From the IMG/VR virus record IMGVR_UViG_2663763413_000005: DNA of 5,802 nt; one strand, 5' to 3'. Of this stretch, positions 1-5,802 are shown one piece after another; position 1 is the stretch's first letter, and each line of letters opens with the position of its first letter. The notes beneath the pieces are model-generated. The model made no database searches. It had not been told where the DNA came from and worked only from the letters and a program-made list of their open reading frames with translations. Both the position numbers and the translations under genes were made by a program. This DNA is from a virus. Taxonomy: Duplodnaviria; Heunggongvirae; Uroviricota; Caudoviricetes.

Positions 1-1
1 G

Positions 2-208
2 GCAAATCAGGGAAAACTACAGGGTGTGCTGGTCAGCCTGACCAATCTGACCGGCGTGGCGGGCCCGCTGCTGTTTGCTTTTATTTTCAGTCAGACACAG
101 CAGAGTGCGGACGGTACGGTGTGGCTGATTGGCACGGCACTGTACGGTCTGCTGCTGGCAATCTGTCTGCTGATCAGAAAACCGGCACCGGTGGCGGCCA
201 CCTGCTGA
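2..208 (+). CDS. C-terminal fragment of an integral membrane transporter (possibly MFS-type); 5' end lies outside the window
   Basis: Reading frame is open from base 2 to a TGA at 206-208 (the track ORF 26..208 begins at an internal GTG). Translation is strongly hydrophobic (…[14 protein letters not shown]… and …[18 protein letters not shown]…), consistent with two transmembrane helices followed by a short charged tail. Family assignment is by general resemblance only. Confidence 0.4.
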
Positions 209-302
209 CCGGCGCTATACAGGCAGCGCTGTTGTGCGGTATGGTGGACGGCATTCGTGCTTATCGCCTGCCATGATAAGCCTCAGACACAGAGGAACCG
301 TT

Positions 303-542
303 ATGAAATCACGCGCAGCAGTCGCCTTCGGGCCGGGTTTACCCCTTGAAATTGTTGAAATTGATGTGGCACCGCCGAAGAAAGGTGAAGTGCTGGTGAA
401 AATCAGTCACACCGGGGTATGCCATACCGATGCCTACACGCTTTCCGGTGATGATCCGGAAGGTCTGTTCCCGGTGGTGCTCGACCATGAAGGTGCCGGG
501 GTGGTGGTTGAGGTCGGTGAGGGCGTGACCAGTGTGAAACCT
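303..542 (+). pseudogene. frmA: S-(hydroxymethyl)glutathione dehydrogenase / class III alcohol dehydrogenase, N-terminal ~80 codons only (3'-truncated remnant)
   Basis: ATG at 303 is preceded by AGAGGA (288-293). Translation [80 protein letters not shown] matches the N-terminus of E. coli FrmA/AdhC as I recall it. The match ends at about 542; the frame then runs on to 635 through unrelated Ala/Phe-rich sequence that is the antisense of the stf remnant. The track ORF start at 234 is an upstream alternative start. Confidence 0.7.
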
Positions 543-1000
543 GCGCTGTTAGCTGCGTTCGTTTCTGAGGTTTTCGCCGCGTTCTTCGATGATGCCGCTG
601 CTGTTTCGGATTTCTTTGCCGCCGCTGCGCTCTGAGAGGCGGCTTCAGCGTTGCGTGCCGCTTCTTCCACCATTTCCTCAAAACGACGCAATGCCTCCGG
701 CATGACATCATCTTCCGTCATGGCACCGAGAAAATCATTCAGCGTCCCCGGCTTAGAATCTTCATACACGGTGATGGTCCCGGCATGTGAAGGCGGAAAA
801 CCTTCAACCAGCAGGATAACGCTGTACTGGCCATACTCAACATCCATGCTGTAACGCCCGGCTTCATCCGGATTTTCAGAGGCCACCGTGTTCACCAGTA
901 CCGTGGTGCTGTTACGCTTTGCCTTCAGTTGAATAGTGCAGTTCTGTATTGGTTTTCCCGCACCATCTTTCAGCACACCTGAGATTTTTACTGCTGCCAT
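540..1000 (-). pseudogene. stf: Side tail fibre protein Stf, N-terminal ~150 codons only (3'-truncated); the ORF reads on into antisense frmA-like sequence to a stop at 434
   Basis: ATG at 998-1000 (minus) with GGAG five nt upstream. Translation MAAVKISGVLKDGAGKPIQNCTIQLKAKRNSTTVLVNTVASENPDEAGRYSMDVEYGQYSVILLVEGFPPSHAGTITVYEDSKPGTLNDFLGAMTEDD… matches the N-terminus of lambda Stf (orf401), followed by the Ala/Ser-rich repeat region. Similarity stops around …[12 protein letters not shown] (about 540-555). The remaining 33 codons ([17 protein letters not shown]…) are the reverse complement of the frmA-like gene. Confidence 0.75.
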
Positions 1001-1011
1001 ATCCACTCCAC

Positions 1012-1038
1012 AAAAAAGCCCGCCTGAACCGGCGGGCT
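1012..1038 (-). terminator. Rho-independent terminator downstream of lom (minus strand)
   Basis: Minus-strand reading is AGCCCGCC-GGTTCA-GGCGGGCT followed by TTTTTTG: an 8-bp GC-rich stem (plus 1017-1024 / 1031-1038), 6-nt loop and T-tract (plus 1012-1017), placed between the lom stop (1065) and the stf start (1000). Confidence 0.6.
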
Positions 1039-1064
1039 GTCATAACACTGTGTTACCTGGCTAA

Positions 1065-1664
1065 TCAGAACTTATAACCGACACCCACGATGAAACCGTC
1101 AGTGCGCCAGTCACCACTGCCGGAGCCTTCATAAGCAATATCAATGGCCACGGATTCGGTCGGGTTAAACTGCACGCCAGCTCCCCACGCCAGAGACGTG
1201 TTGCTGTGGCGACCGTCATCACTTCCGGTCAGCACATCGTGCGTTTTCCCCTTGTTGTCAGTTACGCGGAGGTAATCCCCGGAAAAAGTCGAAACACGGC
1301 TGTAAGCCATACCCGCCATCGCATACGCGCTGAACCATTCATTCACGCGCACAGACGGCCCCGCCATCACGCTGAACCAGCGGTTACGCACGGAATCTTT
1401 ATGCCAGCGGGTATCGCTGTAACGGGTCAGCTGACGATTCTTGTATCCTGCATAACTGAATGACGTCACCAGCCCCAGCGTGTCCGTAAATTCATAACGG
1501 TATTTCACGTTAATGCCCTTCAGGTCATCACTGCCTGGCATATCAGTATGGGTCTGAAGATACCCGGCGCTTAGTGTGGACTGATGCTCTGCTGCGCTCG
1601 CTGGCGTACCAGCGGCAACCAGCCAGACTACTGCGGACAGAATAACAGCACATAATTTACGCAT
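1065..1664 (-). CDS. lom: Lom outer-membrane protein (Ail/Lom/OmpX/PagC family 8-stranded beta-barrel), intact
   Basis: 199-aa ORF with ATG at 1662-1664 and GAGAGG Shine-Dalgarno 6-7 nt upstream. Signal-peptide-like N-terminus MRKLCAVILSAVVWLVAAGTPASA, C-terminal …GFIVGVGYKF ending in an aromatic residue as in outer-membrane beta-barrels. Near-identical over most of its length to lambda Lom as I recall it. Confidence 0.92.
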   Translation of the reverse strand: MRKLCAVILSAVVWLVAAGTPASAAEHQSTLSAGYLQTHTDMPGSDDLKGINVKYRYEFTDTLGLVTSFSYAGYKNRQLTRYSDTRWHKDSVRNRWFSVMAGPSVRVNEWFSAYAMAGMAYSRVSTFSGDYLRVTDNKGKTHDVLTGSDDGRHSNTSLAWGAGVQFNPTESVAIDIAYEGSGSGDWRTDGFIVGVGYKF

Positions 1665-1688
1665 AATTACCTCTCGCTTTTCTGCAAT

Positions 1689-1712
1689 AAAAAAGGCGTC
1701 ATTTCTGACGCC
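1689..1712 (-). terminator. Rho-independent terminator between J and lom (tJ-like), minus strand
   Basis: Minus-strand reading is GGCGTCA-GAAA-TGACGCC followed by TTTTTTATTG: a 7-bp stem (plus 1695-1701 / 1706-1712), 4-nt loop and T-tract (plus 1689-1694), lying between the J stop (1732) and the lom start (1664). Confidence 0.7.
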
Positions 1713-2828
1713 CGTATTGGGGTTATAAAATTCAGCTGATACTGATGCCTGCAGTGGCTTTCTTCATCACAACAACCAGCAAATCGCTGATACTTGCTGT
1801 GGGATACCAACCATTTACCCACCATGCTGATACAGAAAACTCCAGTGTCATTACACCACTGCCTGCAGGCATATCAATAACACCCGTGTAAATCAGAGTA
1901 TTATCCAGAGCCGTTCGGTTATAAATTTCAGCCCCGTTTTTCTTCACTATCAGGCGGCATGACGAATAAGTATCGCTATTCTCCCGCTCATGTCTGGCAC
2001 CGCAGAAAGCCACCGCTGGAATAACAATTTGCCGGTCAAACGACTGATCGTCATAAACCCTGACGGTAATAGTCCCTGATGGCCACCGCTCCGGTGCACG
2101 GGAGTCCCGGGGGAAAGCTTTGCCCACTGTTTTAACGAGATCGCCTTCAATCTGGTTCGCGGACAGTTTTCCCAGAACCCGACAGTTCTCGTTAATCGTG
2201 ACATTATTGAGCGTCCCGGAGTTCGCATTCACGTTACCGCTGATATCGGCATTTTTCGCCGTCAGCCGCCCGTCCGGTGTCAGGGAAAATACCGGAGGAT
2301 TGCCGCCACTGGTAATGGTGGGAGCCGTCAGATACTTCAGGAACACTTCGTTCATGAATATCTGGTTGCCCTGCGCCACAAACATCGGCGTTTCATTCCC
2401 GTTTGCCGGGTCAATAAACGCGATACGGTTAGCGGCAACCAGGAACTGGCTCAGTTTGCCTTCCTCCGTATCCTCCATACTAAGGCCAAGCCCCGCGACA
2501 TAATGCCTGCCGTCTTCGGTCTGCTCAATTTTGACGCCCCACATGGCATTCCATTTATCGTTGGCGTCCTTCCACTCTTTCGAAAACTCCTCCAGTTTGC
2601 TGGCGTTATCCTCCGTCAGCTCGACTTTTTCCAGCAGCTCCTTGCCGAGATGGGATTCGGTTATCTGGCCTTTGAAAAAATCCAGGTAACCTTCCGCATC
2701 ATCGCTCGGCTGACCAACAGCCTCCACGAATGCCGATTTGCCAACGGTGTTCACACTGCGGATATAAAAGTAATAATCATGGCCCGGTTTGATATTGATA
2801 CTGGCAGCTATCCAGTACAGCGCCGTAC

Positions 2829-2873
2829 CAAGATAGCGGGCTGTGGTCTCAAGATAGCGGGCTGTGGTCTCAA
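2829..2873. repeat. Perfect 21-bp tandem duplication (unit AGATAGCGGGCTGTGGTCTCA at 2831-2851 and 2852-2872)
   Basis: Read directly from the sequence. In frame within J, duplicating the peptide ETTARYL. Confidence 0.9.
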
Positions 2874-3210
2874 CCTGCCTGATATCGGTAATCCGCTTTT
2901 CCGAGAACCAGAACTCAAACTGTACCGTCGGATCATAAACCGCAAGATGCGGCGTGGCAGTTATCTGAAAATAGCCCGGCGTCAGCTCAATCCGCGACGG
3001 CGCTGCCGGTGCGGCAATCCGGAACGATACCGATGCCGGATCGCCCTGCTGTCCCCACGCATTTACCGCCCGGACCGTCAGCGTGTAACGCCCCAGCGCC
3101 AGTTGCCTGAAGCGGTATGTGGTTTCCGTCGTCCTGGCCGTGCTGACCAGCCGCTCACTGCCGTCATCCGCTGCCACGGTCAGGCGAAGCATAAAGCTCA
3201 CCCCCTTCAC

Positions 3211-3269
3211 CACCTTCGGCGTATCCCAGCGCGCCAGCACCTTCGGCGTATCCCAGCGCGCCAGCACCT
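3211..3269. repeat. Perfect 27-bp tandem duplication (unit ACCTTCGGCGTATCCCAGCGCGCCAGC at 3212-3238 and 3239-3265)
   Basis: Read directly from the sequence. In frame within J, duplicating the peptide LARWDTPKV. Confidence 0.9.
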
Positions 3270-3541
3270 GATACTCCCCGCTGTCTGAGGTGACTTCGGC
3301 AGTCAGGTGCTGCACCGCAGGCGGCGTGACACCATTCACCGTGCCGCTCTGGTCGCCGTCAAAGTGCGCCCCGTTATCCACGATGGCCTCTTTTTCCGGC
3401 ACATGCTGCACGGCGGTGATGGCATACGTGCCGTCGTCGTTCTCACGGATACTCACGCAGCGGAACAGGCGCTGGCGCAGCGTCGGCAGCTTCAGCCCCC
3501 ATACGCTGTATTCAGCAACACCGTCAGGAACACGGCTCACT

Positions 3542-3555
3542 TTTACCTTTACCTT
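3542..3555. repeat. Short 6-bp tandem repeat (TTTACC x2 plus partial), encoding a KVKVKV run in J
   Basis: Period-6 identity over 3542-3555. Protein reads [12 protein letters not shown], where lambda J as recalled has [10 protein letters not shown]. Confidence 0.6.
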
Positions 3556-3652
3556 CACGCCGTCGGTGACGGACTGAACCTCCACGCTGACCGGATTGCC
3601 ACTTCCGTCAACCAGACTTATCAGCGTGGTACCGGAGGATGGCAGCGTGATT

Positions 3653-4225
3653 TCACGGTCGAGCGTCAGCGTCCGGGTCTGGCTGTTCACCGCCAGCCAC
3701 GCGCCCGCCGATGCTGATACCCGCATAGTCATCATCACAGATTTCAATGACATCCCCCGGTACATGGCGAAGCCCTTCCGCACCCACGCTGAAGTCCACG
3801 GTCTGCGTTTCCAGCAGTTCCGTTTTAATCAGCCACAGCCCGGCGCGGTGCGCCTGCCCCCGGCTGGTACAGCCAAAGGCATCCATCTTCGTGACGTTAC
3901 GACCGTAACGGGCAATGGCCTGCGTATCTTCAACAAGCTCTGTCGCCGTCTCCCAGCCGTTGTTCGGGTCAATCCAGTTCACCTCAACGGCATTATGGCG
4001 GTCCTTCAGGGCGCTGAAGCTGTAGCGGAACGGCGCGCCATCATCCGGCATCACCACATTACTGCGGTTATAGGTCCACACCTTATCTGATGGTCGGTCC
4101 TGCACGAACGTCAGCGTCTGCCCGTTCCATACCGGCATACAGCGCATCGCCGAGCAGAAATCACTGAGCACATCCCACGCCTTGCGCTGTGTGGTCAGCC
4201 AGGCATTACAGGTGATGCGCGGCCT
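3653..4225 (-). pseudogene. J: J fragment 2 (middle), in the +1 frame relative to fragment 1
   Basis: Part of track ORF 3653..4330. Translation from PRITCNAWLTTQRKAWDVLSDFCSAMRCMPVWNGQTLTFVQDRPSDK… through …[22 protein letters not shown] matches lambda J, then runs out of frame ([14 protein letters not shown], stop at 3653). Confidence 0.8.
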
Positions 4226-4247
4226 CATTACAGGTGATGCGCGGCTC
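4204..4247. repeat. Near-tandem direct duplication: 20-bp unit CATTACAGGTGATGCGCGGC twice (4204-4223, 4226-4245) separated by CT; net 22-bp insertion
   Basis: Read directly from the sequence. Located inside J and coincides with the first frame break. Confidence 0.9.
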
Positions 4248-5204
4248 CGTGCCACCAAAGCCATCCGGCACCGACTGGTCGCAATTCTGGCCGATGACAT
4301 ACAGCGCCCATTTGTCCACATCCGCCGCACCGAGACGCTTCCCCATGCCGTAGCGCGGATGGGTCAGCATATCCCACAGACACCAGGCCATGTTGTTGCT
4401 GTATGCTGGCTTAAACGTTCCGTCCCAGATACCGCTGTATTGTCGCGTCTGCGGGTTATAGTTCGACGGCACCTGCAGAATGCGCCCGCGAAGATGATAA
4501 TTACGACTCACCTGCTGGCTGCCGAACTGCTCCGAGTCCACCTGTACGCTGACCAGTGCCGTGTTCGGGTAGCACTGTTTCACATCGATGATTTCGGTGT
4601 ATGACGACCAGAGCGTTTTGTTCTGCAGCTGGTCTGTGGTGCTGTCCGGCGTCATCCTGCGCATCCGGATATTAAACGGGCGCGGCGGCAGGTTATCCAC
4701 CACCACCGAGGCCAGATACTGCGAGGTGGTTTTGCCTTTAATGGTGATGTCTTTTTCCGTCACCCAGCCACCGTTACGCTGTATCTGAACCAGCAGGCGG
4801 ACTTCCGACGGATTCCGGTCCCCCTTTGAGGTGGTTTCCACCAGTGCCTGCACACCGAAGGTAAAGCGCAGACGGTCGATGTTTGCAGACGTGATGGTCC
4901 GGGTAATCGGCGTGTCGTACTTCACTTCCGTACCCAGCACCGTCTCGGAGCCGGAGGATTCAAATCCCTCCGGCGGTGTCTGCTCCTGCTCACCTGCCCG
5001 GAACACCACCGTGACACCGGAGATATTGGTATTCCCCTCACTGTCCAGCACCGGCGTACTGTTCAGCAGCACACTTTTTAATCCGTCCACCGGACCTTCA
5101 ATCGGCCCTTCACTGATGGCGTCTATCACGCTCAGCATCTGGGATGATTTCAGGTTGTCCTTCGCTTCGCGCGGGGTATGCCCCTTACTGCTGCCTTTAC
5201 CCAT
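4206..5204 (-). pseudogene. J: J fragment 1 (N-terminal, 332 codons), ending at a premature TAA created by the 22-bp duplication
   Basis: Track ORF 4206..5204. Translation matches the lambda J N-terminus up to …GGTEPRITCN, then reads EAAHHL and stops. Confidence 0.85.
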
Positions 5205-5226
5205 TCCTCACGCTCCAGAAACGACA

Positions 5227-5246
5227 AAACCGCCCTGAGGCGGTTT
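5227..5246 (-). other. Inverted repeat / hairpin in the I-J intergenic region (possible weak terminator or RNA structure)
   Basis: Plus strand AAACCGCC-CTGA-GGCGGTTT (8-bp stem, 4-nt loop). On the minus strand it is followed by TTTTGTCGTTTCT, which is only moderately U-rich, then the J Shine-Dalgarno sequence. Confidence 0.3.
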
Positions 5247-5264
5247 CACACAAAACATTCTGCA

Positions 5265-5802
5265 TCAACGACCAATCACCACAACCTGACCACCATCTCC
5301 TTCATCTGCCGTGCTGATCTCCTGCGAAATCACCCGTGACCCCACGCGCATTTCACCGTACAGAACCGGCAGAACATTGCCCTGGGCAACCATGTTATCC
5401 AGTGAGGAGAAATAGGTGTTCTGTTTGCCGTTATCCGTTGTCTGTGTACGGGGAGTTCTGGCTTTCGGTGCCAGCATCTGCGCCACACCACCGAGCACCA
5501 TACTGGCCCCCGCACCATACATTCCTGTAATTGCGGCAGCCCCCAACCAACCTGCAGGGTTCCACCATGCCACCGCAATCAGCGCCGCCCCCAGCACACT
5601 GCCTGAAAAAGACCGCCACTTTTGGCTCCCGCCAGACGCGGCACAATGTGGATCACGGCACCATTTGCCAGCGGTTCATTAAGACGGGCGGATAATTCAG
5701 TTTCACCTGCATCACGCCCGGCAATACGTACCTGATACCAGCCGTCGCTCAGTTTCTGACGAAACGCCGGAAGCTGTGTGGTCAGCGCCCGGACTGCTTC
5801 GG
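5265..5802 (-). pseudogene. I: Tail assembly protein I, 5' end outside the window, with a frame break near 5598-5606
   Basis: From the window end, one minus-strand frame reads EAVRALTTQLPAFRQKLSDGWYQVRIAGRDAGETELSARLNEPLANGAVIHIVPRLAGAKSGGLFQ and then hits TGA within a few codons. The I-like sequence continues in a different frame as VLGAALIAVAWWNPAGWLGAAAITGMYGAGASMVLGGVAQMLAPKARTPR…VVIGR (track ORF 5265..5597). Both halves match lambda I as recalled. Confidence 0.8.

Follow-up and report, generated by a model that had tools for sequence, protein, structure and literature searches.

The tail protein J of the prophage fragment described here ends in a receptor-binding tip which is not that of phage lambda; the difference is real, but it is already known and ordinary. 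The window which we have studied is the whole of a draft contig of 5802 bp (AOQJ01000313.1, assembly GCA_000397385.1). In it the region 1735–2202, read on the minus strand, quite probably encodes an exchangeable J receptor-binding tip of the OmpC type (the Sakai/gpJ-1A2 family), most likely used for adsorption to OmpC. Positions 542–5802, also on the minus strand, belong to a lambda-like prophage, of which they hold the tail end: genes I, J, lom and the start of stf. The last ~150 residues of J are an exchangeable host-range module, and it is this module that we discuss in the first place.

The tip corresponds to the last 156 codons of J and is followed by the stop codon TGA (1732–1734, minus strand). 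Its translation is exactly the peptide quoted in the original prediction, and position 2200 lies inside its first codon (2200–2202). According to that prediction the last ~150 residues follow the layout of the lambda J C-terminus and differ from it at many positions: both statements are correct. In a BLASTP comparison with lambda J (NC_001416) the tip is collinear with residues 976–1131 over its 156 residues, with a single gap of one residue, and 66 of the 156 positions are identical (42%). The prediction had named high C-terminal identity to lambda J as the result that would speak against it; the alignment gave this value of 42%. A tip of the lambda type is recognised by high identity to residues 976–1132 of lambda J, whereas the values found here are 42% in amino acids and 52–56% in nucleotides.

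The drop in identity is restricted to the end of the protein. The 683-aa J ORF as a whole is 79% identical to lambda J (BLASTP), and the decrease is found in the last ~155 residues: the ~490 residues upstream are collinear with lambda residues 490–975 and about 90% identical, if three inserted repeats are left aside. The DNA of J has an identity of 87–98% with lambda in segments of 150 nt, then only 52–56% from position ~2200 to the stop. Homology to lambda detected by BLASTN ends at position 2182 (lambda codon ~982) and starts again at 1192, inside lom. Such an abrupt fall at a boundary indicates a module swap rather than scattered drift or chance. The breakpoint of the lambda mosaic lies in 2128–2202 (minus strand), as judged from BLASTN, identity along the sequence and BLASTP; this short region corresponds to the final strands of the central straight fibre of J, which lead into the receptor-binding domain (RBD).

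The RBD itself occupies positions 1735–2127 of the minus strand. Pfam, AlphaFold2, Foldseek and the sequence identities place it as an Ig-like domain which belongs to the UTI89/PhiR47_1 sub-allele of the Sakai/1A2 OmpC-type family. The Pfam profile PF12421 (Ig_GpJ_C, C-terminal receptor binding domain) matches tip residues 26–156 with 132.3 bits, against a cut-off of 26.2, and the match spans the complete profile (positions 1–135 of 135). In the 652-aa J ORF of the public gene calls the order of domains is Ig_J, Ig_J_second, Phage_Tail_Tip and Ig_GpJ_C, the latter at the extreme C-terminus. The AlphaFold2 model of the tip, built with an alignment of 36 homologues, is all-beta and has a mean pLDDT of 81.5. 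The homologue set contains mostly J fragments from short contigs: it served for the structure alignment and for the study of variable positions, not for counts of full-length genes.

The four top matches of the model found by Foldseek in the PDB are 9wca, 9wcb, 8xck and 8xcj, with E values from 1e-15 to 1e-17; a sequence search of the PDB with the J tip gives the same four entries. Two of them are A8 gpJ713, either closed (9wca) or open with OmpC G17 of EDL933 (9wcb), states which we have taken from the titles of the PDB entries; they have TM scores of 0.77–0.79 and 60% identity. The other two are the lambda central fibre, closed (8xck) and bound to LamB (8xcj), with TM scores of 0.79–0.82 and 42% identity. 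The predicted structure has thus the same Ig-like fold as the lambda J RBD. That this domain determines which receptor is used, as had been proposed, agrees with the PF12421 match, with the fold of the solved gpJ tips and with the lambda structure, in which loops L1–L4 of the RBD go into LamB (Ge & Wang 2024, PMC11101478). In lambda the binding of the receptor spreads the three RBDs; the movement travels up the fibre and opens the tail (PMC11101478).

When 50,697 phage records are searched with tblastn, the J tips fall into discrete families. The tip most similar to that of the window is found in PhiR47_1 (PV340566), an isolated phage whose record host is E. coli ECOR13: it has 99.4% amino acid identity and a single change, S154T. 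A group formed by VT1-Sakai, the long-tailed Stx2a phages, the PPompW prophages and phage 2G7b (92%) shows 91–92% identity. There follow phage 21 (67%), BP-4795 (65%) and A8 gpJ (64%), and then phage 434 (44%) and lambda (42%). The tips of the window and of VT1-Sakai have the same length and align without gaps at 91.0%, above the value of ~90% used to define the Sakai/gpJ-1A2 type. With the A8/phage 21 type the identity is 64–67% and there are indels in loops L1 and L2: judged by its sequence, that type is a sister family of the window tip and not the same allele. Some tips have intermediate identities and might be taken as mosaics of the window type and the phage 21 type, but most of them look like sub-alleles with their own L1, or like frameshifted fragments.

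The tip of the window is by no means a rarity. Its DNA is 100% identical to that of the intact gpJ genes of UTI89, NU14, UPEC132 and others. Of 5426 complete E. coli genomes, 3354 have tips of its family (at least ~80% identical), the median being two copies, and this version is the commonest one in E. coli prophages. The lambda-type tip is found in 98 of the same 5426 genomes, always with an identity of at least 99%; laboratory DE3 and K-12 strains are at the top of the list. It follows that to differ from lambda is the norm for this domain. In natural E. coli the lambda type is the exception, with 98 genomes compared with 3354, a point worth keeping in mind; few natural E. coli prophages appear to have the textbook specificity of lambda for LamB. 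The division of J into ~980 conserved residues and ~150 diversified residues which contact the receptor has already been described, with phage 2G7b as an example (Andrews & Fields preprint).

The receptor of this family has been studied by Brödel et al. (2024, PMC11338833), who replaced the C-terminus of lambda gpJ from residue 964 with natural variants and picked out those which use another receptor on a recipient with lamB deleted. Their variants 1A2 and A8 deliver DNA via OmpC, as demonstrated with a lamB ompC double deletion and plasmid-borne ompC variants. A8 accepts OmpC of both K-12 and EDL933; 1A2 accepts only the EDL933 type and not that of K-12 (PMC11338833). A follow-up preprint agrees on the use of OmpC by 1A2 and A8 (10.1101/2025.02.28.640725). 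Phage 434 is also cited as a user of OmpC (PMC11101478). The fusion point at residue 964 is just upstream of the divergence boundary described above, so that the switch of receptor maps to exactly this segment.

The 1A2 chimera sequence available in the supplement is recoded and damaged by OCR, with many indels, so its identities were estimated with a frameshift-tolerant protein-to-DNA alignment; plain tblastn on these sequences gives fragmented matches with misleading identities of 44–56%. The native DNA strings of the window tip were not found in the Brödel supplement, because 1A2 is recoded there. In the readable columns 1A2 is of the VT1-Sakai type at 145 out of 151, and the other mismatches adjoin obvious OCR indels. 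The window tip itself matches the damaged 1A2 sequence at 133 of the 151 readable columns. The A8 tip is closest to phage 21: the identity is 80% when calculated from the OCR-damaged supplement and 81.5% from the clean sequence in the PDB alignment.

Among lambdoid J proteins with a known receptor the window tip is thus closest to the VT1-Sakai/1A2 type (91%), with lambda at 42%, and it is a member of a family whose dependence on OmpC is experimental. OmpC is its likely receptor, as drawn from the 91% identity with the 1A2/Sakai tip. The original prediction was that the ancestral phage probably targeted a receptor other than LamB. The choice of a receptor different from LamB is favoured by these identities, 42% to the LamB-binding tip of lambda and 91% to an OmpC-type tip; to speak of an ancestral phage may mislead a little, given that intact prophages and the isolated phage PhiR47_1 carry this tip too. 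For PhiR47_1 we did not find any receptor assignment in the searchable literature: the only paper which names the phage gives none.

These features suggest how the tip may work. The part of J up to residue ~980 (hub, FNIII domains, helical shaft and beta-prism fibre) is a conserved machine common with lambda, while the last ~150 residues form an Ig-like domain whose distal loops would dock on an outer-membrane porin trimer. Recombination in the conserved stretch immediately upstream would exchange the tip between lambdoid phages. In an intact J trimer it would most likely serve for irreversible adsorption to OmpC, and binding would then be followed by the same rearrangement of the fibre and opening of the tube as in lambda on LamB.

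The window tip differs from the Sakai/1A2 tip in 14 of its 156 residues: S54P, C67S, R70K, R73K, N75H, S76T, T78I, K87R, T106S, S115H, V117H, W128L, G131N and S154T. From the order of the strands in the model we infer four distal loops, L1 (residues 29–42), L2 (73–76), L3 (99–101) and L4 (129–140), which coincide with the segments that bear indels between allele families. With this placement L1 and L3 are identical in the window and in the Sakai type. In L2 three of the four positions differ, as well as its flanks, and in L4 there is the change G131N, with W128L next to it; the position of both loops comes from the strand order of the model. Thus half of the differences, 7 out of 14, are found in or beside predicted L2 (R70K, R73K, N75H, S76T, T78I) and L4 (W128L, G131N). 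In the family with at least 85% identity the variable columns cluster in L1 (11 of 14) and L2 (4 of 4), and the strands are mostly constant. Predicted L1 appears there in several unrelated versions between constant flanking strands; the presence of several L1 versions in one allele family hints at loop-level exchange or diversification.

The specificity of the window sub-allele may differ from that of its relatives, since 1A2 itself discriminates between OmpC variants. A shifted spectrum of OmpC variants is also plausible given that 1A2 and A8 do not accept the same ones. As a tentative suggestion, which we regard as somewhat doubtful, the UTI89/PhiR47_1 sub-allele may have OmpC variants of its own as receptors, or bind another porin. 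If this is the case, it would be an example of natural fine-scale retargeting inside one J allele family, and it would provide an additional ready-made module for engineered lambda delivery particles.

A peculiarity of this contig is the state of its J gene, which extends over 1732–5204 of the minus strand as three ORFs (4206–5204, 3653–4330 and 1732–3783) with three in-frame tandem duplications. The split of J is also present in the public gene calls of the contig. When compared with the intact prophage of UPEC132, the region 542–5802 has one substitution and six insertions of 21, 27, 6, 1, 22 and 2 nt. The three longest (21, 22 and 27 nt) are perfect tandem duplications according to TRF. The 22-nt duplication at 4204–4225 (minus strand, TRF match 100%) shifts the frame of J at about codon 320 and is absent from PhiR47_1, lambda and UPEC132. 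A second frameshift, at about codon 495, is due to an insertion of 1 nt at 3697. The other three insertions in J keep the frame: 6 nt at 3542–3547 (a duplication which adds VK), 27 nt at 3211–3237 (extra LARWDTPKV) and 21 nt at 2829–2849 (extra ETTARYL), all on the minus strand. The sixth insertion, 2 nt at 5599–5600, splits the tail assembly gene I (5265–5800, minus strand) into two ORFs. The frame is interrupted upstream, so that no full-length J with the tip could be produced, provided that the contig sequence is right. Six insertions and a single substitution, in a fragmented draft, point to errors of the assembly or else to damage that is very recent. Such a ratio of insertions to substitutions in the phage part is odd for natural decay.

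Downstream of J we find an intact lom gene (1065–1664, minus strand), which codes for an Ail/Lom outer-membrane protein 45% identical to lambda Lom. Since homology with lambda DNA resumes at 1192, the non-lambda module runs from J codon ~982 into lom. This block takes in the J tip, then the region between the two genes and roughly three-quarters of lom from its start; its extent suggests that the tip and this part of lom move together as one exchanged block. Next comes the side tail fibre gene stf, present as an N-terminal fragment (542–1006, minus strand) which is cut at 541/542. The remaining part of the window (1–541, plus strand) is a resistance module unrelated to the prophage, in which the 3' end of tet(D), up to position 208, is followed by the initial 80 codons of a gene for a class III alcohol dehydrogenase (303–541). 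Plasmids and chromosomes of E. coli carry tet(D) resistance modules which are 99.8% identical to it; the dehydrogenase of complete genomes runs on to 1110 nt, with IS26 further downstream. At position 484 the window has A instead of G, the only mismatch to other dehydrogenase genes linked to tet(D), which changes the conserved GHEG into DHEG in the truncated fragment. The junction where the truncated stf meets this module is blunt and creates a fusion ORF of 110 aa (303–635). Junction analysis showed neither a mobile element nor an IS element nor microhomology at the 541/542 joint, and the exact tet(D)/stf junction was not found in contigs of one genome per species. The joint could have arisen by genuine illegitimate recombination, or the contig could be chimeric.

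Adsorption to OmpC has to be weighed against other readings of the same segment. Different sequences might converge on the same porin, so that the tip would still bind LamB in spite of its divergence; its fold is that of the lambda RBD and 42% of its positions are common to lambda. We find this highly improbable: a tip 91% identical (1A2/Sakai) works in recipients with lamB deleted and depends on OmpC supplied in trans, the loops which lambda inserts into LamB correspond to the most divergent segments of the window tip, and A8, its closest relative with a solved structure, was solved together with OmpC. A closer question is whether the UTI89/PhiR47_1 sub-allele uses a different porin (OmpF, PhoE, OmpN or similar), or OmpC variants markedly different from those of 1A2. 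The accumulation of changes around predicted L2 and L4, the variation of L1 and L2 in the family with at least 85% identity and the different OmpC variants accepted by 1A2 and A8 are all consistent with it. Furthermore, Meyer et al. reportedly found in 2012 that a few point mutations in lambda J suffice to add OmpF. Such a change of porin nevertheless appears unlikely, given that L1 and L3 are identical to the Sakai type and that the whole tip is 91% identical to it with no indels. The 1A2 type and the A8/phage 21 type, the latter only 64–67% identical to the window, both use OmpC: its use seems to be conserved over much larger distances.

It is also possible, although we rather doubt it, that the segment has no function and is just the last part of a J pseudogene which is decaying inside a defective prophage, in which case its divergence from lambda would be irrelevant. 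Two frameshifts split J and another one splits I, and stf is cut short and joined to the resistance module. On the other hand the DNA of the RBD is 100% identical to that of intact genes in many genomes, and apart from the six insertions the prophage part differs from UPEC132 by one base in 5.2 kb. Any inactivation would then be extremely recent, or an artefact of the assembly. Whatever the state of this copy of J, we reject decay of a pseudogene as the source of the divergence from lambda, since intact genes have this very tip, base for base. An OmpC-type tip, acquired as a module, is the reading which we retain.

Annotations of the allele exist in thousands of genomes, engineered particles have already been directed to OmpC with a member of its family, and a sister allele has been solved in complex with OmpC. 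The practical value of the result is in annotation: the tip should be labelled 'OmpC-type (1A2/Sakai family), UTI89 sub-allele' and not 'lambda-like, LamB'.

The known system closest in sequence is that of PhiR47_1 and the prophages of UTI89, NU14 and UPEC132. The tip has 99.4% amino acid identity with the phage and 100% nucleotide identity with the prophages, and the order of genes is I-J-lom-stf as in the window. The difference is in the rest of J, which is intact in all of them (3393–3396 nt) and has five insertions in the window. The tip of gpJ-1A2 and O157 Sakai belongs to the same allele family and occupies the same place in J, with 91% identity over 156 residues and no indels. It differs by the 14 substitutions given above, half of them in or beside predicted L2 and L4, and by the fact that the use of OmpC has been measured for 1A2.

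The other systems are more distant. A8 gpJ, of the phage 21 type, has the same fold and is the best solved match (9WCA and 9WCB), at 60–64% identity; it also binds OmpC. In comparison with the window tip its L1 is 4 residues shorter and its L2 is 5 residues longer, and unlike 1A2 it accepts OmpC of K-12. The tip of phage 434 is the same domain and this phage uses OmpC, but with 44% identity and several indels it forms a separate allele family. The lambda J RBD (8XCJ and 8XCK) agrees with the window in PF12421, Ig-like fold, position and length, and the rest of J is ~90% identical; in the tip the identity is only 42%, and the receptor of lambda is LamB.
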